This document shows, in pieces, positions 1-6,713 of a stretch of 8,016 nucleotides of DNA. This DNA is from a virus (taxonomy: Duplodnaviria > Heunggongvirae > Uroviricota > Caudoviricetes). The notes beneath the pieces are model-generated. The model was not told the origin of the DNA. It searched no databases and saw only the letters and a program-made list of their open reading frames with translations. The stretch lies in the IMG/VR virus record IMGVR_UViG_2684622582_000005, positions 1-8,016 of that record; one strand, written 5' to 3'. Each line of letters opens with the position of its first letter. Within the stretch, counting starts at the first letter, position 1. The position numbers were made by a program, and so were the translations under genes.

Positions 1-1284
1 CTACTTTTTCGCCTCTGCAACCACTTTGCTACCCACGCCGCGGTTATTGTATTCCCACATGCGGTTGTAGTTAGTGTCATTCAGATTGCGCTGTACTTCG
101 TCGTTATCATCAACGTTGCCAGTATTACCCGCAAACGGACGATTGGAAATCACCGCATCGGCCCACGGTTTCGCCGTGTTAAAACCTTCGTTGATGGCGC
201 TATCACGGATCACTACCTGACCGTTGGTATTGGCATCAACATCCAGCGAGCGGCCCAGTTGCGCCACGCCATCACCGGAAGCATTGAAACGGCTGTTTAC
301 GGCGAGGAAACCGTAGTAAATGTTGGACAGCGTAGCCGGTGCAAACACATACGCTTCTTGCTGGGTACGGGAGTTCACCACGCGGAATTCGGTGTTATCG
401 AACACCACTGCGCCGCGACCAGAAACGATATCCACATCCCCTTCAATATAGCTGTTGGTCACCAGCGTACGCGGCTGACGATTCGTTTCCAGACGGTTCT
501 GCACACCGCTGTTGGTGACAAAGAAGGTGTTCTGACGACCGAGAATGTTGACGTTATTGATCTGCACTTTGTCGCCATCAGTACGCAGTGCCACCGCCGG
601 ATGGTTACCCGCATCTACGCTATCGCCCAGCGTGTTTTCGATGGTCAGGTTTTGCAGTTGCAGGCCATTGTTTTGTGACCAGAAGACCGCAGAGCAGAGA
701 ACACCGATACTGTCGCTGCGTTTACTCTGGCAGCTATCGTACATATACCACGCCGGTTTACCTGGCATATATTTGCCGCGCGGGTTGACGTCGTGACGCC
801 AGTCGGCAGGGCTCATGCCACCATCAAGGGAAAGCCCAATCTTCACATCAATCGGTTTTTCACCTGTACCGTATAGAGTAATTCCACCCGGAGCGGCAGG
901 GACATACACCGTTCCCTGATACTCACCAGGCATCACGGCAATATACTGGCGCTTGTTGGTACGCTTGATAATTGCCGCATCTACCGCCGCCTGAATCGTG
1001 GTATGCGTTACACCTTGAGTACCCGCCGGGCCGACAACAAAGTCAGGTTGCGCAGGCAGGGTAATCGGGGAAGGATTCCACGCTGCCGCACCTGGTGTCA
1101 GGGATGCAAAATAGTGTTGAGCATCGAAATTCTGCGCTTCTTTTGCCGACAGAATCGGGCGCGAAGAGGTACCAGGCGCGGTTTGATCAGAAGGACGTTG
1201 ATCGGGCGGTGTTGAGCTACAGGCGGTCAGCGTCACGCCAAAAGCCAATGCCAGCGCCAGACGGGAAACTGAAAATGTGTTCAC
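1..1284 (-). CDS. ybhC: YbhC, putative outer-membrane lipoprotein (pectinesterase-like / acyl-CoA thioesterase family); host gene flanking attB-lambda
   Basis: 427-aa ORF spanning 1..1284 on the minus strand. N-terminus MNTFSVSRLALALAFGVTLTAC has a signal peptide and lipobox (LTAC). Length and sequence match my memory of E. coli YbhC, the gene on the gal side of attB-lambda. Start ATG at 1284, stop at 1..3. Confidence 0.9.
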   Translation of the reverse strand: MNTFSVSRLALALAFGVTLTACSSTPPDQRPSDQTAPGTSSRPILSAKEAQNFDAQHYFASLTPGAAAWNPSPITLPAQPDFVVGPAGTQGVTHTTIQAAVDAAIIKRTNKRQYIAVMPGEYQGTVYVPAAPGGITLYGTGEKPIDVKIGLSLDGGMSPADWRHDVNPRGKYMPGKPAWYMYDSCQSKRSDSIGVLCSAVFWSQNNGLQLQNLTIENTLGDSVDAGNHPAVALRTDGDKVQINNVNILGRQNTFFVTNSGVQNRLETNRQPRTLVTNSYIEGDVDIVSGRGAVVFDNTEFRVVNSRTQQEAYVFAPATLSNIYYGFLAVNSRFNASGDGVAQLGRSLDVDANTNGQVVIRDSAINEGFNTAKPWADAVISNRPFAGNTGNVDDNDEVQRNLNDTNYNRMWEYNNRGVGSKVVAEAKK

Positions 1285-1315
1285 AGGTTGCTCCGGGCTA
1301 TGAAATAGAAAAATG

Positions 1316-1421
1316 AATCCGTTGAAGCCTGCTTTTTTATACTAAGTTGGCATTATAAAAAAGCATTGCTTATCAATTTGTTGCAACGAACAGGTCACTA
1401 TTAGTCAAAATAAAATCATTA
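1316..1421. other. attL: attL (B-O-P') of lambda-type site-specific integration; 15-bp core at 1331..1345
   Basis: Host-side B arm TTGAAGCCT, then core GCTTTTTTATACTAA (1331..1345), then P'-arm sequence GTTGGCATTATAAAAAAGCATTGCTTATCAATTTGTTGCAACGAACAGGTCACTAT... as in lambda attP, running directly into the int stop codon. Confidence 0.88.
1371..1421. promoter_or_regulatory. P'-arm protein-binding sites: IHF H' site (TATCAATTTGTTG, 1371..1383) and three tandem Int arm-type sites (about 1391..1421)
   Basis: TATCAATTTGTTG fits the IHF consensus WATCAANNNNTTR. CAGGTCACTAT / TAGTCAAAAT / AAATCATTAT resemble the Int arm-type consensus (C/A)AGTCACTAT and sit where P'1-P'3 lie in lambda. Confidence 0.7.
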
Positions 1422-2345
1422 TTTGATTTCAATTTTGTCCCACTCCCTGCCTCTGTCATCACGATACTGTGATGCCATGGTGTCCGACTTATGCCCGAGA
1501 AGATGTTGAGCAAACTTATCGCTTATCTGCTTCTCATAGAGTCTTGCAGACAAACTGCGCAACTCGTGAAAGGTAGGCGGATCCCCTTCGAAGGAAAGAC
1601 CTGATGCTTTTCGTGCGCGCATAAAATACTTTACACCTGTTTTGCTTTGCTCGACATAAAGATATCCATCTACGATATCAGACCACTTCATTTCGCATAA
1701 ATCACCAACTCGCTGCCCGGTAACAACAGCCAGTTCCATTGCAAGTCTGAGCCAACATGGTGATGATTCTGCTGCTTGATAAATTTTCAGGTATTCGTCA
1801 GCCGTAAGTCTTGATCTCCTTACCTCTGATTTTGCAGCGCGAGTGGCAGCGACCGGGTTTATTGTTATATGGCCTTCAGCTATTGCCTCTCGGAATGCAT
1901 CGCTCAGTGTTGATCTGATTAACTTGGCTGACGCCGCTTTGCCCTCGTCTATGTATCCATTGAGCATTGCCGCAATTTCTTTTGTGGTGATGTCTTCAAG
2001 TGGAGCATCAGGCAGCCCCCTCCTTATTGCTTTAATTTTGCTCATGTAATTTATGAGTGTCTTCTGCTTGATTCCTCTGCTGGCGAGGATTTTTTCGTAG
2101 CGATCAAGCCATGAATGTAACGTAACAGAATTATCACTGTTGATTCTCGCTGTCAGAGGCTTGTGTTTGTGTCCTGAAAATAACTCAATGTTGGCCTGTA
2201 TTGCTTCAGTGATTGCTATCCTCCTGTCTCGGCCTAAACCAAACTCTTTACCCGTCCTTGGGTCCCTGTAGCAGTAATATCCATTGTTTCTTATATAAAG
2301 GTTAGGGGGTAAATCCCGGCGCTCATGACTTCGCCTTCTTCCCAT
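1419..2345 (-). CDS. int: Lambda-type tyrosine integrase Int with an in-frame 48-residue internal deletion (308 aa instead of 356 aa); probably inactive
   Basis: N-terminus MGRRRSHERRDLPPNLYIRNNGYYCYRDPRTGKEFGLGRD and C-terminus ...LLGHKSDTMASQYRDDRGREWDKIEIK match lambda Int. The residue count places R212 and K235 at their lambda positions and maps H260/R263/H285/Y294 onto lambda H308/R311/H333/Y342, which fits a loss of residues 240-287. The lambda BamHI site (GGATCC, about 1580) is retained. Confidence 0.88.
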   Translation of the reverse strand: MGRRRSHERRDLPPNLYIRNNGYYCYRDPRTGKEFGLGRDRRIAITEAIQANIELFSGHKHKPLTARINSDNSVTLHSWLDRYEKILASRGIKQKTLINYMSKIKAIRRGLPDAPLEDITTKEIAAMLNGYIDEGKAASAKLIRSTLSDAFREAIAEGHITINPVAATRAAKSEVRRSRLTADEYLKIYQAAESSPCWLRLAMELAVVTGQRVGDLCEMKWSDIVDGYLYVEQSKTGVKYFMRARKASGLSFEGDPPTFHELRSLSARLYEKQISDKFAQHLLGHKSDTMASQYRDDRGREWDKIEIK

Positions 2346-2541
2346 TTCTGATCCTCTTCAAAAGGCTACCTGTTACTGGTCGATTTAAGTCAACCTTTAC
2401 CGCTGATTCGTGGAACAGATACTCTCTTCCATCCTTAACTGGAGGAGGGAATATCCTGCATTCGCGCACCCATCGACGAACTGTTTCAAGGCTTCTTGGG
2501 CGTCGCTGGCGAGCGTTCCACTCCTGAAGTGTCAAGTACAT
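2323..2541 (-). CDS. xis: Excisionase Xis (72 aa)
   Basis: MYLTLQEWNARQRRPRSLETVRRWVRECRIFPPPVKDGREYLFHESAVKVDLNRPVTGSLLKRIRNGKKAKS matches lambda Xis. ATG at 2541; the 3' end overlaps the int start by 23 nt. The 102-aa ORF in the track is an upstream extension in the same frame. Confidence 0.92.
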   Translation of the reverse strand: MYLTLQEWNARQRRPRSLETVRRWVRECRIFPPPVKDGREYLFHESAVKVDLNRPVTGSLLKRIRNGKKAKS

Positions 2542-2562
2542 CGCAAAGTCTCCGCAATTACA

Positions 2563-2589
2563 CGCAAGAAAAAGCCGCATTGATGCGGC
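2563..2589 (-). terminator. Predicted rho-independent terminator (minus strand) between the 114-aa ORF and xis
   Basis: Read on the minus strand: GCCGCATCAATGCGGC (perfect 6-bp stem, 4-nt loop) followed by TTTTTCTTG. Confidence 0.6.
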
Positions 2590-2658
2590 GATGGTAGGTC
2601 TGGATATCATTGAGCAATGAACAGGCCTCATCGAGTGTGAGGCGGTGTTATTTCATGG

Positions 2659-3003
2659 TTAGTCCTTGCGTAGCTCGCTGATTCTTCTGTAAGTCTCTGG
2701 TGCTTTGTTTCCGTGTATCTTCATTTCAGACTTCAACAGAGCAACGAGGGAATCCCATTCGTTGAGGATTCCTTTGAATGCCGGAACGCGCTTTGCAACC
2801 TTGTTGAATGAATCTCTGATTTCTGGAATCTGCTCAACAAGTGCAACGCATCGTCTGAAATCGGCTGCGTCATGGGGAGCGCCGAAGTGATGACCATAGA
2901 TATTCTTTTTCAGTCCACATGCGATTGAGGCAAGAGTTGCGCTACTGATGCCAACATCGCCAGTCGATTGCCATTTCAAAACCTTCATAGCCAAATCTGA
3001 CAT
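2659..3003 (-). CDS. Hypothetical protein, 114 aa; unrecognised accessory gene immediately upstream of xis
   Basis: Intact ORF with ATG at 3003, preceded by GGAGA 6 nt upstream. Co-oriented with the operon. I do not recognise a family from the sequence (MSDLAMKVLKWQSTGDVGISS...YGHHFGAPHDAADFRRC...RRISELRKD). Confidence 0.6.
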   Translation of the reverse strand: MSDLAMKVLKWQSTGDVGISSATLASIACGLKKNIYGHHFGAPHDAADFRRCVALVEQIPEIRDSFNKVAKRVPAFKGILNEWDSLVALLKSEMKIHGNKAPETYRRISELRKD

Positions 3004-3016
3004 TTCTTGTCTCCAA

Positions 3017-3039
3017 TAAAAAAACCGCCATCAGGCGGC
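3017..3039 (-). terminator. Predicted rho-independent terminator (minus strand) downstream of the 59-aa zinc-ribbon gene
   Basis: Read on the minus strand: GCCGCC-TGAT-GGCGG hairpin followed by TTTTTTTA. It ends about 14 nt before the ATG of the 114-aa ORF. Confidence 0.65.
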
Positions 3040-3104
3040 TTGGTGTTCTTTCAGTTCTTCAATTCGAATATTGGTTACATTGTTTTCATATATGAATAAA
3101 TAAA

Positions 3105-3284
3105 TTAGCTTTTTTCGTTGCCTTCGCGTTCTTTATTAATTTTGACAAAATCGTTTTTACCACGCTCTCCAAATGCGTCTTTAGAGTCGTTGTATCCGCA
3201 ATCGCAGCACACATAATCATCAGACCATCCACGCATTGTTTTTTCTTTTGCAATATTTCCAGAACCGCATTTTGGACAAGACAT
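3105..3284 (-). CDS. Small zinc-ribbon protein (59 aa), CPKCG...CCDCG; possible Ea8.5-like
   Basis: ATG at 3284 preceded by GGAGG with a 7-nt spacer; product MSCPKCGSGNIAKEKTMRGWSDDYVCCDCGYNDSK... The track's 70-aa version starts at an upstream TTG with no obvious RBS. Two CxxC pairs; paralogous in pattern to the 65-aa ORF at 4457..4654. Confidence 0.55.
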   Translation of the reverse strand: MSCPKCGSGNIAKEKTMRGWSDDYVCCDCGYNDSKDAFGERGKNDFVKINKEREGNEKS

Positions 3285-3380
3285 ATCACTACCTCCAAAG
3301 CATGAGAGAGATGACAACGTAACATTGATTGGAGATTAACAATAGATTGCTGATGTAAAAGATATGTATAAGCTTAGCTA

Positions 3381-4169
3381 TCAAAGGGGAGGTTCTGGTA
3401 GTTGCATCCAGTCGGTTACATTGCGACTCTGTGTTTCGAAAAATTCATCACCATTGCGGACAATATCGAAAAACTCTCCGTCTCGATATTGCGCATAAAG
3501 AACGAATGCGCCATCACATAAAATAATTACGTGCTGACCATCATCTGGCATTCGCTCACTACAGCTTATCCAACCATCCGGAGTTACCGGATAGTTGCCC
3601 GATAGTGCATTCTGCTCCAGTGATGCTTTTACAAAACACGCGGCCTGAACTATTACGTCATGAATCCAGCGCAAATCAGCATCGCGATCTTTCTTTTTCA
3701 TTTTTTCGCCACTTAAAGCCTGGCTTATGTGGCTGCGTACCAGGTCTTCATGTAACGCCTTCGCATCCTCAATGGTGAAACCACCAGGCAGGCGAGCCGG
3801 GGTTACATGAGGGTTGCCTTCCCCCTGACTCTGAAGCATGGTGGCGCGGCAGGCGTTCCAGCCTTCATCAAAACCGACTATGCCATTATTTAAAGACGGA
3901 CGAGCATCTGGCACCACCAGTACTGGCTTGGCTATATATAGCGGCTGAACATACCAACCCTTTGATAACCAACTGTCAGCAATGTTTTTACTCCTCGTTA
4001 TTGCCGGAATACCTAAGCCATTGTCTGAATGAAGCCACGCCACCGGCTCTGCTTCCAGCGATGCCAGAGCAATTTCATAAGCCCGACGCTCAATATTGTC
4101 TCGGACGTCCAGGCTGCCTATGCGCTCTTTGATTTCTTTAATCAGTTCTTTGTCGGTGAAAGTGGTCAT
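3381..4169 (-). CDS. Ea22-like protein with a DUF551-like C-terminal region (262 aa)
   Basis: Likely start is ATG at 4169 (MTTFTDKELIKEIK...), with RBS AAGGAGAG and stop-start coupling (TGAtATG) to the upstream ORF. The C-terminus (...WISCSERMPDDGQHVIILCDG...VTDWMQLPEPPL) resembles the W...PEPP ending I associate with DUF551 prophage proteins. The track's 292-aa version extends upstream across the neighbouring ORF. Confidence 0.65.
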   Translation of the reverse strand: MTTFTDKELIKEIKERIGSLDVRDNIERRAYEIALASLEAEPVAWLHSDNGLGIPAITRSKNIADSWLSKGWYVQPLYIAKPVLVVPDARPSLNNGIVGFDEGWNACRATMLQSQGEGNPHVTPARLPGGFTIEDAKALHEDLVRSHISQALSGEKMKKKDRDADLRWIHDVIVQAACFVKASLEQNALSGNYPVTPDGWISCSERMPDDGQHVIILCDGAFVLYAQYRDGEFFDIVRNGDEFFETQSRNVTDWMQLPEPPL

Positions 4170-4182
4170 ATCACTCTCCTTT
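4167..4182. repeat. 16-nt junction repeat CATATCACTCTCCTTT (copy 1) at the Ea22-like stop / downstream-gene start
   Basis: Identical 16-mer at 4167..4182 and 4652..4667. On the minus strand it reads AAAGGAGAGTGATATG, i.e. RBS plus TGA stop plus ATG start. A degenerate third copy (CATATCACTACCTCC) lies at 3282..3296. Confidence 0.85.
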
Positions 4183-4446
4183 TCCCTGAAGCATAGCCGC
4201 GCGGCAGGCATTCCAGCCTGTAGTGTAATATTGCGCATCATGCCAGCTCGTTTGTACATTTGAGTACGCTTTTTCCTCTGTCATCGGCTCGGGTATTGAT
4301 GGCGCTTGCTTTGCTTCCAGTGATGCCAGTGCAATCCGTGCCAGTTCTTCCGCTTCTTCTGCTGGCAGTACAACGTTGCTACCCGGTCCGTATGTTTCTC
4401 GCCACTGCTTGATTGTCAGCAGTCGATCTTTGGTAATAGTGGTCAT
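4171..4446 (-). CDS. Hypothetical protein (91 aa); truncated paralog of the N-terminal module of the 262-aa Ea22-like protein
   Basis: MTTITKDRL... parallels MTTFTDKEL...; shares the IALASLEA and GWNACRA(A/T)MLQ segments with the 262-aa protein. Ends ...KGE with TGA one nt before the next ATG. Confidence 0.5.
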   Translation of the reverse strand: MTTITKDRLLTIKQWRETYGPGSNVVLPAEEAEELARIALASLEAKQAPSIPEPMTEEKAYSNVQTSWHDAQYYTTGWNACRAAMLQGKGE

Positions 4447-4456
4447 TTGTTATGCC

Positions 4457-4654
4457 TCAATACACAAAATCTGTTTTAAATTCATGGTTACATTCTGGAC
4501 AGCATGTTTCGTAACCTTTTATTTCTTCACATGCCTGTTTTGCTCCAGAAAATTCCCAGAAATCAGCATCGCAAAGCAGATCGAAATTGTGGCCGCATTT
4601 TGGGCATTCAGTATCAAGTGATAAACTCCAGTAAGCAGGTGTGTTTTTGTCCAT
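4457..4654 (-). CDS. Small zinc-ribbon protein (65 aa), CPKCG...CCPEC; possible Ea8.5-like
   Basis: ATG at 4654 preceded by AAGGAGAG; product MDKNTPAYWSLSLDTECPKCGHNFDLLCDADFWEFSGAKQACEEIKGYETCCPECNHEFKTDFVY. It follows an Ea22-like gene with the TGAtATG junction, the position ea8.5 occupies after ea22 in lambda. Confidence 0.55.
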   Translation of the reverse strand: MDKNTPAYWSLSLDTECPKCGHNFDLLCDADFWEFSGAKQACEEIKGYETCCPECNHEFKTDFVY

Positions 4655-4667
4655 ATCACTCTCCTTT
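4652..4667. repeat. 16-nt junction repeat CATATCACTCTCCTTT (copy 2)
   Basis: See copy 1; exact match read directly from the sequence. Confidence 0.85.
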
Positions 4668-5081
4668 GATGCGAATGCCTGCGGCGCGTGGCACATTAAC
4701 TTCCACGATGCGCACTGTTGGTTTGTACATCTCAATCGCTGTCAGCCAGTCAGCTCCTGTCATGCGCTTTTCCGCATCGCCATTAGTCCACTGAACCGGT
4801 ACACCAATAGCCTTCATCGCGATTTCTATTTCCCCGGCAATGGCGCTTTTTCCGCAACCAGTAAAACCAGAAACAACGACAAGAACTTCACCTTTGGCTG
4901 GTTTTATTTCCCGAGCTTCCAGTTCTGCAATGCGCTTTTTGTCTGCTTCCCGTTCATCCAGCAGTGCCAGCACAATCGATGGTGTTACCAGCTCATGGAA
5001 AAGGTCCGCGTCAAATCCCCAGTTGTCATGCATTGCCTGCTCTGCCGCTTCACGCAGTGCCTGAGAGTTAATTTCGCTCAC
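4656..5081 (-). CDS. Ea22-like protein (141 aa) with an internal Walker-A-like motif (GFTGCGKS)
   Basis: GTG start at 5081 overlapping the orf73 stop (GTGA), preceded by AGAGAGG. The N-terminus MSEINSQALREAAEQAMHD... and the ...IRIKGE C-terminus resemble the conserved ends of the ead/Ea22-like family as I recall them. The central segment VLVVVSGFTGCGKSAIAGE (nt 4845..4868 encode GFTGCGKS) fits GxxxxGK[ST]. Confidence 0.6.
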   Translation of the reverse strand: MSEINSQALREAAEQAMHDNWGFDADLFHELVTPSIVLALLDEREADKKRIAELEAREIKPAKGEVLVVVSGFTGCGKSAIAGEIEIAMKAIGVPVQWTNGDAEKRMTGADWLTAIEMYKPTVRIVEVNVPRAAGIRIKGE

Positions 5082-5299
5082 TTCGAACCTCTCTGTTTAC
5101 TGATAAGCTCCAGATCCTCCTGGCAACTTGCACAAGTCCGACAACCCTGAACGATCAGGCGTCTTCGTTCATCTATCGGATCGCCACACTCACAACAATG
5201 AGTGGCAGATACAGCCTGGTGGTTCAGACGACGCATTTTTATTGCTGTATTGCGCTGTAATTCTTCGATTTCTGATGCTGAATCAATGATGTCTGCCAT
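5078..5299 (-). CDS. TraR/DksA-family C4 zinc-finger protein (73 aa), orf73-like
   Basis: MADIIDSASEIEELQRNTAIKMRRLNHQAVSATHCCECGDPIDERRRLIVQGCRTCASCQEDLE... has two CxxC pairs about 17 residues apart, the same length as F-plasmid TraR (73 aa), and sits at the orf73 position of lambdoid exo-xis regions. Confidence 0.75.
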   Translation of the reverse strand: MADIIDSASEIEELQRNTAIKMRRLNHQAVSATHCCECGDPIDERRRLIVQGCRTCASCQEDLELISKQRGSK

Positions 5300-5353
5300 C
5301 TTCCATTAATCCCTGAATTGTTGGTTAATACGCTTGAGGGTGAATGCGAACAA

Positions 5354-5375
5354 TAAAAAAGGAGCCTGTAGCTCC
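5354..5375 (-). terminator. Predicted rho-independent terminator (minus strand) between the orf61-like gene and orf73
   Basis: Read on the minus strand: GGAGC-TACAG-GCTCC hairpin followed by TTTTTTAT, about 22 nt downstream of the orf61-like stop. Confidence 0.6.
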
Positions 5376-5397
5376 CTGATGATTTTGCTTTTCATGT

Positions 5398-5679
5398 TCA
5401 CCGTTCCTTAAAAACGCCGTTTAACATGCCGATCGCCAGGCTTAAATGAGTCGGTGTGAATCCCATCAGCGTTACCGTTTCGCGGTGCTTCTTCAGTACG
5501 CTACGGCAAATGTCATCGACGTTTTTATCCGGAAACTGCTGTCTGGCTTTTTTGATTTCAGAATTAGCCTGACGGGCAATACTGCGAAGGGCGTTTTCCT
5601 GCTGAGGTGTCACTGAACAAGCCCCATGTCGACAAGCATAAGCACACAGAATATGAAGCCCGCGGCCAGAAAAATGCAT
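5398..5679 (-). CDS. orf61-like hypothetical protein (93 aa as drawn; true start uncertain)
   Basis: ORF in the position of lambda orf61, ATG at 5679, 10 nt after the orf63 stop. An internal GTG (VTPQQ...) would give 71 aa. Called by position and operon context only. Confidence 0.5.
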   Translation of the reverse strand: MHFSGRGLHILCAYACRHGACSVTPQQENALRSIARQANSEIKKARQQFPDKNVDDICRSVLKKHRETVTLMGFTPTHLSLAIGMLNGVFKER

Positions 5680-5689
5680 TCAGTGGTTG

Positions 5690-5881
5690 TCATACCTGGT
5701 CTCTCTCATCTGCTTCTGCTTTCGCCACCATCATTTCCAGCTTTTGTGAAAGGGATGTGGCTAACGTATGAAATTCTTCGTCTGTTTCTACTGGTATTGG
5801 CACAAACCTGACTCCAATTTGAGCAAGGCTATGTGCCATCTCAATACTCGTTCTTAACTCAACAGGAGATGCTTTGTGCAT
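5690..5881 (-). CDS. orf63: Orf63 (63 aa), exo-xis region protein
   Basis: 63-aa [66 protein letters not shown] at the expected position; length and sequence match my memory of lambda Orf63. Confidence 0.8.
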   Translation of the reverse strand: MHKASPVELRTSIEMAHSLAQIGVRFVPIPVETDEEFHTLATSLSQKLEMMVAKAEADERDQV

Positions 5882-6036
5882 ACCGCCTCCCGTTTATTAT
5901 TTATCTTCTCAGCCAGCCGCTGTGCTTTCAGTGGATTTCTGATAACAGAAAGGCCGGGAAATACCCAGCCTCGCTTTGTAACGGAGTAGACGAAAGTGAT
6001 CGCGCCTACCCGGATATTATCGTGAGGATGCGTCAT
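5854..6036 (-). CDS. orf60a: Orf60a (60 aa), exo-xis region protein
   Basis: Start at the ATG overlapping the exo stop (ATGA at 6033..6036) gives the 60-aa product [40 protein letters not shown]... The track's 62-aa version starts 2 codons upstream. Confidence 0.8.
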
Positions 6037-6713
6037 CGCCATTGCTCCCCAAATACAAAACCAATTTCAGCCAGTGCCTCGTCCATTTTTTCGATGAACT
6101 CCGGCACCATCTCGTCAAAACTCGCTATGTACTTTTCATCCCGCTCAACCACGACATAATGCAGGCCTTCACGCTTCATACGCGGGTCATAGTTGGCAAA
6201 GTACCAGGCATCTTTTCGCGTCACCCACATGCTGTACTGCACCTGGGCCATGTAAGCCGACTTTATGGCCTCGAAACCACCGAGCCTGAACTTCATGAAA
6301 TCCCGGGAGGTAAACGGGCATTTCAGCTCAAGGCCGTTGCCGTCACTGCATAAACCATCGGGAGAGCAGGCGGTGCGCATACTTTCGTCGCGATAGATGA
6401 TCGGGGATTCAGTAACATTCACGCCGGAAGTGAATTCAAACAGGGTTCTGGCGTCGTTCTCATACTGTTTTCCCCACGCCAGCGCCTTAGCATTAACTTC
6501 CGGAGCCACACCGGTGCAAACCTCAGCCAGCAGGGTGTGGAAGTAGGACATTTTCATGTCAGGCCACTTCTTTCCTGAGCGGGGCTTTGCTATCACGTTG
6601 TGAACTTCTGAAGCGGTGATGACGCCGAGCCGTAATTTGTGCCATGCATCATCCCCCTGTTCGACAGCTCTCACGTCGATCCCGGTACGCTGCAGGATAA
6701 TGTCCGGTGTCAT
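6033..6713 (-). CDS. exo: Lambda exonuclease (Red-alpha), 226 aa
   Basis: [65 protein letters not shown]... matches lambda Exo over its full length. Start overlaps the bet stop (ATGA). Confidence 0.95.

Follow-up and report, generated by a model that had tools for sequence, protein, structure and literature searches.

The closest relatives of the integrase described here are the Int protein of phage lambda (UniProt P03700; structures 1AE9, 1P7D, 1Z1B, 1Z1G and 5J0N) and the near-identical Int proteins of phages HK97 and 434. Excision of lambda requires Int, which works on attL and attR in concert with Xis and IHF (PMC6379469, PMC4880445), and in the catalytic domain of the enzyme the residue K235 sits between strands beta2 and beta3 (bioRxiv 10.1101/2023.11.06.565760). 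Five residues explain most of the difference in core-site specificity between lambda and HK022 (PMC6007267). A mutation in the recombinase gene or in an att site is regarded as the grounding event of a so-called "grounded" prophage (PMC6379469), and the cryptic prophages DLP12, Rac, e14 and Qin of E. coli (PMC6379469) are likewise chromosomal prophages with a lesion in the excision machinery. The locus analyzed here resembles these four elements in this respect, but they are old, heavily deleted and fixed in their lineages, whereas the present prophage carries a single and apparently very recent lesion in one isolate, and, unlike in classic cryptic prophages, the rest of the visible prophage DNA, up to cIII, is undamaged. 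With lambda Int the protein shares the three-domain layout, the catalytic residues, an att core with a P' arm and an overlapping xis gene; unlike lambda Int, it is devoid of residues 240-287 and its catalytic domain is incomplete.

The window, i.e. the whole stretch of 8,016 nucleotides that was analyzed, is an exact substring of CXYT01000002.1, a contig of 572 kb belonging to the E. coli draft assembly GCA_001268365.1. This contig stops 67 bp past the window, inside cIII, and the prophage is therefore viewed here from the ybhC side to cIII, with the immunity, replication and late regions and attR presumably lying on other contigs. The order ybhC-attL-int-xis...exo-bet-gam-kil-cIII is that of a lambdoid prophage at the lambda attachment site, ybhC being the host gene that flanks lambda attB, and the window is a lambdoid prophage integrated at this site, beside ybhC, in one E. 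coli isolate (Table 1). Similar prophages occupy the same site in about 1,750-1,900 of 5,426 complete E. coli genomes, and at the DNA level the int-xis-attP module shares 98-99% identity with its counterparts in phages HK97, 434 and lambda. The Red ORFs exo, bet and gam are intact and are followed by kil and then by cIII. Between xis and exo lies a mosaic of early-left genes for which a full match was found in none of the complete E. coli genomes, the best place covering 83% of the window. The Lar-like and DUF551 proteins encoded in this mosaic have 59 and 262 aa, respectively, and three further proteins of 114, 91 and 65 aa encoded in the same region gave no match to a Pfam family.

Table 1. 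Features of the ybhC-proximal part of the prophage (positions refer to the window).
Feature	Position	Strand	Basis or content
ybhC, host gene, 427-aa pectinesterase-like lipoprotein	1..1284	-	ORF, PF01095; annotated ybhC in the syntenic E. coli WP5-S17-ESBL-11 locus
attL core (common core O), GCTTTTTTATACTAA	1331..1345	+	identical to the lambda attP core, misc_recomb 27724-27738 in J02459
P' arm, Int arm-type sites P'1, P'2 and P'3	1392-1401, 1402-1411 and 1413-1422	+	alignment with lambda attP and the WP5 attL
int, lambda/HK97/434-type tyrosine integrase gene, 308 codons	1419..2345	-	ORF, alignments, Pfam
int, 3' part kept (lambda residues 288-356)	1419..1629	-	block 2 of the match to 5j0n and 1z1g
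Deletion junction, codon 239 (AA|G) joined to codon 288	1629..1630	-	alignments
int, 5' part kept (residues 1-239)	1630..2345	-	PF09003, PF22022, PF02899, PF00589 profile positions 2-65
xis (excisionase), 72 aa, intact	2323..2541	-	translation; relatives annotated as excisionase
Mosaic early-left genes between xis and exo	2659-6042		Lar-like, DUF551, Ea22-like, TraR/DksA zinc-finger, DUF1382, DUF1317

Alignment of the window int with the int genes of lambda (J02459) and of E. coli WP5-S17-ESBL-11 displayed a single in-frame gap of 144 nt and no other gap, and outside this gap the gene is identical, at 927 of 927 nt, both to the int of WP5-S17-ESBL-11 and to that of a sister contig, L004, described below. 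The deletion is a discrete change of the sequence and does not depend on statistics. The gap starts at the third base of codon 239 and ends at the second base of codon 287; K239 survives the deletion, its codon changing from AAA to AAG, the 48 residues from I240 to R287 are gone, and VEQSKTGVK is fused to YFMRARKASG at the junction. In lambda Int the residues 240-287 read IAIPTALHIDALGISMKETLDKCKEILGGETIIASTRREPLSSGTVSR, a segment that this enzyme does possess and that the original prediction had given correctly and in full as the missing peptide. Likewise, the ORF and the alignments bear out the size difference on which that prediction was built (308 aa against the 356 aa of lambda Int), and the pairwise alignment with the lambda int of J02459 that of a 48-codon deletion of residues 240-287. 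The same two blocks, 1-239 and 288-356, were recovered by comparison with the chains of three lambda Int structures, 5j0n, 1z1g and 1z1b. The full-length sister Int differs from lambda Int at only four residues (T162I, H164P, A245T and I248V).

The 5' part that is kept encodes the arm-binding domain (residues 1-69), the core-binding domain (residues ~79-171) and, with R212, D215 and K235, the beginning of the catalytic domain; H308, R311, H333 and Y342 are encoded in the 3' part together with the C-terminal tail. All these residues are present in the window protein, at positions 212, 215, 235, 260, 263, 285 and 294, respectively, in agreement with the earlier statement that R212, K235, H308, R311, H333 and Y342 are retained, and the catalytic set R-K-H-R-H/W-Y is therefore complete. 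The lost residues amount to 48 of the ~187 residues of the catalytic domain, or 26%, very close to the "roughly a quarter" that had been estimated, and the spacing between K235 and H308 falls from 72 to 24 residues, 48 of the 72 between them being lost.

Profile searches describe the same situation at the level of domains. The arm-type DNA-binding domain was recognized over residues 1-69 by PF09003, with 113.5 bits against a cut-off of 22, and is identical to that of the lambda 1-64 structures 1KJK and 2WCC; the core-binding (SAM-like) domain was recognized over residues 81-171 by PF22022 and PF02899, and this part of the protein matches 2OXO over residues 74-176. PF00589 covers a full-length relative in one stretch (residues 179-345, profile positions 2-168, 139 bits), and the window protein in two pieces with a total of 93.6 bits, the first of which ends at profile position 65 of 172. 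The lost segment corresponds approximately to profile positions 66-113 of this 172-position domain, and the complete catalytic fold, made of the beta1-beta3 sheet and the helical core, is not found in the window protein.

Homologues from across the Enterobacterales were taken from one database search (41-86% identity to the query, 345-362 aa), and 53 full-length homologues were aligned (45-80% identity, 345-362 aa). All of them keep the segment, in which only indels of 1-3 residues occur, and I242 and P243 are nearly invariant among them. The shorter proteins seen among the relatives are only closely related damaged or partial copies. For the full-length protein, AlphaFold gave a model with a mean pLDDT of 85.9, the catalytic domain of which agrees with the crystal structure 1AE9 with a TM of 0.96-0.99. 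In this model strand beta2 spans residues 228-232, strand beta3 residues 239-243, a helix residues 255-265, a small hairpin residues ~270-279 and the next helix residues 282-296. Mapped on the model (the original prediction had proposed mapping on a lambda Int structure), the missing residues comprise strand beta3, the helix 255-265, the hairpin at ~270-279 and the first six residues of the helix 282-296. In a model of the deleted protein the beta2-beta3 hairpin is lost and the confidence of the catalytic domain falls from 93-97 to 69-88, a result that we count as consistent with the above, structure prediction being a poor judge of the effects of deletions. The positions that determine the difference in core-site specificity between lambda and HK022 are reportedly 99, 282, 283, 287 and 319 (Dorgai et al. 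1995), and an HK022-type Int in our alignment differs from lambda at exactly these positions. As 282, 283 and 287 lie inside the lost piece, three of the five core-specificity positions of this reported set are gone. The lost segment is a conserved structural core of the protein and not a variable loop.

The remaining elements of the recombination module that lie in the window were compared with those of lambda. The attL core has the bacterial B arm on its left and the phage P' arm on its right, and both the cognate core and the arm-type sites adjoin int, P'3 overlapping the int stop codon. P'1, P'2 and P'3 are named and delimited after the known lambda attP (Ross & Landy 1982; Numrych et al. 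1990). P'2 begins with a T (window position 1402) where lambda has a C, and at all its other bases the P' arm agrees with that of lambda. The C form of P'2, set in a near-invariant 43-mer, was found in 1,921 of the 5,426 complete E. coli genomes, and the T form in none of these 5,426 genomes and in none of the phage records, GTDB representatives or IMG/VR sequences searched. That this C-to-T change could be a second private lesion of the recombination module was considered and rejected, since the sister contigs L004 and L006, both with an intact int, also carry the T; its presence on these contigs indicates that the T of P'2 is most simply viewed as a rare lineage variant, separate from the int deletion and unlinked to it. 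The product of xis differs from lambda Xis by one substitution, G59S, in the C-terminal region, and xis overlaps the start of int in the same manner as in lambda. The attL core, xis and the exo, bet and gam ORFs are as intact as had been anticipated.

Because the lost segment is the conserved core of the tyrosine-recombinase fold, the deleted Int is presumed to be inactive, and structure and conservation together indicate that it is almost certainly unable to fold an active catalytic domain. A catalytic domain devoid of residues 240-287 would not be expected to adopt the tyrosine-recombinase fold, the beta2-beta3 hairpin that positions K235 would be broken, and cleavage and strand exchange would in all likelihood be lost. 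Both integrative and excisive recombination by the deleted Int are predicted to be absent. Since int is crippled and excision requires Int, it can be soundly inferred that the prophage is unable to excise or to re-integrate with its own Int, and the earlier claim that it cannot excise is upheld by reasoning from the loss of the conserved core. Excision and re-integration would be expected to remain blocked unless a co-resident lambda-type Int acted in trans. The prophage displays two marks of a grounded element, namely integration at the attachment site and a lesion in the recombinase gene, here the 144-bp deletion in int. The PGAP name given to the protein, WP_053294341.1, is only "Arm DNA-binding domain-containing protein", and its full-length relatives are named "tyrosine-type recombinase/integrase".

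The age of the lesion can be judged from two sister metagenome contigs, L004 (ENA ERZ28636746, scaffold_543) and L006 (ENA ERZ27304961), which were found through the neighboring DUF551 protein and which carry the same prophage at the same insertion site with an int of 356 aa. Over bases 1-6286 the sole difference between the window and L004 is the 144-bp deletion. Beyond position 6286 five synonymous changes are found within 190 bp of exo (6287-6477) and one more change in gam (7524); the cluster in exo resembles a short patch of recombination, as is typical for the mosaicism of lambdoid phages. A 44-mer spanning the junction was absent from the 5,426 complete E. coli genomes and from 50,697 phage records, and an exact 31-nt junction pattern was absent from the GTDB representative genomes, the JGI metagenomes and IMG/VR; local BLAST, dust checks and a wild-type control query established that these negative results were not caused by masking or by the length of the query. 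The exact 308-aa protein occurs on one contig among approximately 15 billion proteins. An intact int in an otherwise identical sister copy and a junction seen nowhere else in these collections point to a deletion that, as judged by sequence comparison, is a derived state, arose very recently and is limited to a single isolate. The comparison with other lambdoid prophages at this site, which had been suggested as a way of tracing the deletion, therefore gives a singleton and not a lineage-wide trait.

As to the manner in which the deletion arose, its ends share 0 bp of microhomology, no match within 40 nt on either side is longer than 6 nt, a length that shuffled sequence gives as well, and no direct or inverted repeats beyond chance were found at the ends. 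Replication slippage between repeats is for this reason disfavored as the cause, and the lack of a shared repeat argues equally against a collapse of k-mers by the assembler. This last point bears on the view that the isolate in fact has an int of 356 codons and that assembly, scaffolding or gap closure dropped 144 bp of it. Such an artefact, of assembly or of sequencing, would be in accordance with the facts that the deletion is known from one short-read draft assembly alone, that none of the independently assembled contigs of the large collection searched encodes the same 308-aa product, and that the closest relatives, with no other difference over bases 1-6286, have a full int. Nevertheless, de Bruijn k-mer collapse is implausible at ends with no repeat longer than those 6 nt, the source contig is long, with the site 6.4 kb from its end, and neither Ns nor other anomalies are present around the junction, and we consider an artefact unlikely. 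The reading that fits best is that the sequenced DNA really underwent an illegitimate deletion, and we hypothesize that 144 bp were lost in this manner inside int, very recently and in one isolate. That such a deletion left an inactive Int and a stranded prophage, as an ordinary step of decay, is in our judgment probable. It would be the ordinary start of the "grounding" or decay of a prophage, presumably neither designed nor selected.

Two other possibilities accept the deletion as real and differ in the meaning given to it. The shortened Int might still be an active recombinase, with a natural "mini" catalytic domain and a mobile prophage, since the catalytic residues, both DNA-binding domains, the C-terminal tail and the reading frame are all kept. 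Against this stand the retention of the segment in all 53 complete lambda-type Ints aligned, down to 45% identity to full-length Int, the extent of the loss in PF00589 (about 48 consecutive positions of the profile, 66-113 of 172), the shortening of the K235-H308 spacing by two thirds, the absence from the fold of strand beta3 and of two helices, and the location in the lost piece of 282, 283 and 287, among the five positions that distinguish lambda from HK022 in core specificity; an active enzyme is thus extremely improbable. Alternatively, the deletion could have been favored because it locks in a beneficial prophage, with its Red genes and immunity, or because the shortened Int serves as a decoy that binds arm sites and interferes with related phages. 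A preserved reading frame together with an intact high-affinity arm-binding domain and an intact xis would suit this interpretation, and favored grounding has been proposed in general terms (PMC6379469). Yet the allele is a singleton that has not spread, its undiverged flanks make the event too recent for selection to be read, an in-frame outcome has a prior of one in three, and plainly destructive lesions also occur in the same int family. In addition, int is silent in a repressed prophage. In lambda, pI needs cII and pL is repressed in the prophage, hence int is not expressed. Selected domestication is consequently very unlikely, and a narrower form of it, in which a stable, catalytically dead Int able to bind arm sites, and perhaps core sites, is retained as a lock and as a dominant-negative decoy against phages of the lambda family, has hardly any likelihood; if true, it would represent a natural "anti-integrase" built from an integrase.

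The same evidence leaves two further claims of the original prediction without support. The deletion had been described as unlike typical pseudogene decay on account of its frame and clean flanks, but an in-frame outcome is expected in one of three cases by chance, and the same int family also harbors a 61-aa in-frame deletion, a 21-aa duplication and frameshifts, so that this claim is unsupported. These damaged alleles comprise a protein of 295 aa with an in-frame loss of residues 213-273 (P0018), one of 377 aa with a 21-aa tandem duplication, SEVRRSRLTADEYLKIYQAAE (P0016), the frameshifted "putative integrase" of Shigella flexneri 5 str. 8401 (P0048) and a further damaged lambda-type int allele (P0044). 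They resemble the window int in belonging to the same gene family and in bearing independent lesions in or near the catalytic domain, but differ from it in the position and type of the lesion, and the junction of the window int is found in none of them. Likewise, the proposal that the prophage keeps useful functions is unsupported in any selected sense, because the allele is a singleton with flanks unchanged relative to the intact sister copy, and because the view of the prophage stops where the contig does, in cIII. A lineage-fixed lesion accompanied by purifying selection on the genes that are kept is not what was found, the allele being a singleton with 0 substitutions over 6.3 kb; with no change relative to the sister copy over this distance, selection has had no time to act or to become visible.

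The event itself is of a kind already known, as a fresh loss-of-function lesion in a prophage integrase is a well-described step of decay, and it has little significance beyond the isolate, its relevance being limited to the users of this strain. Its value lies in showing, in a clean and datable case, the first hit by which a lambdoid prophage goes from active to stranded, and the sister sequences supply the intact parental allele for comparison. For annotation purposes, the ORF at 1419-2345 is best labeled a disrupted integrase rather than a functional one. If induced, a prophage that is defective in excision but otherwise functional would replicate in place and kill the cell, yielding no normal phage.
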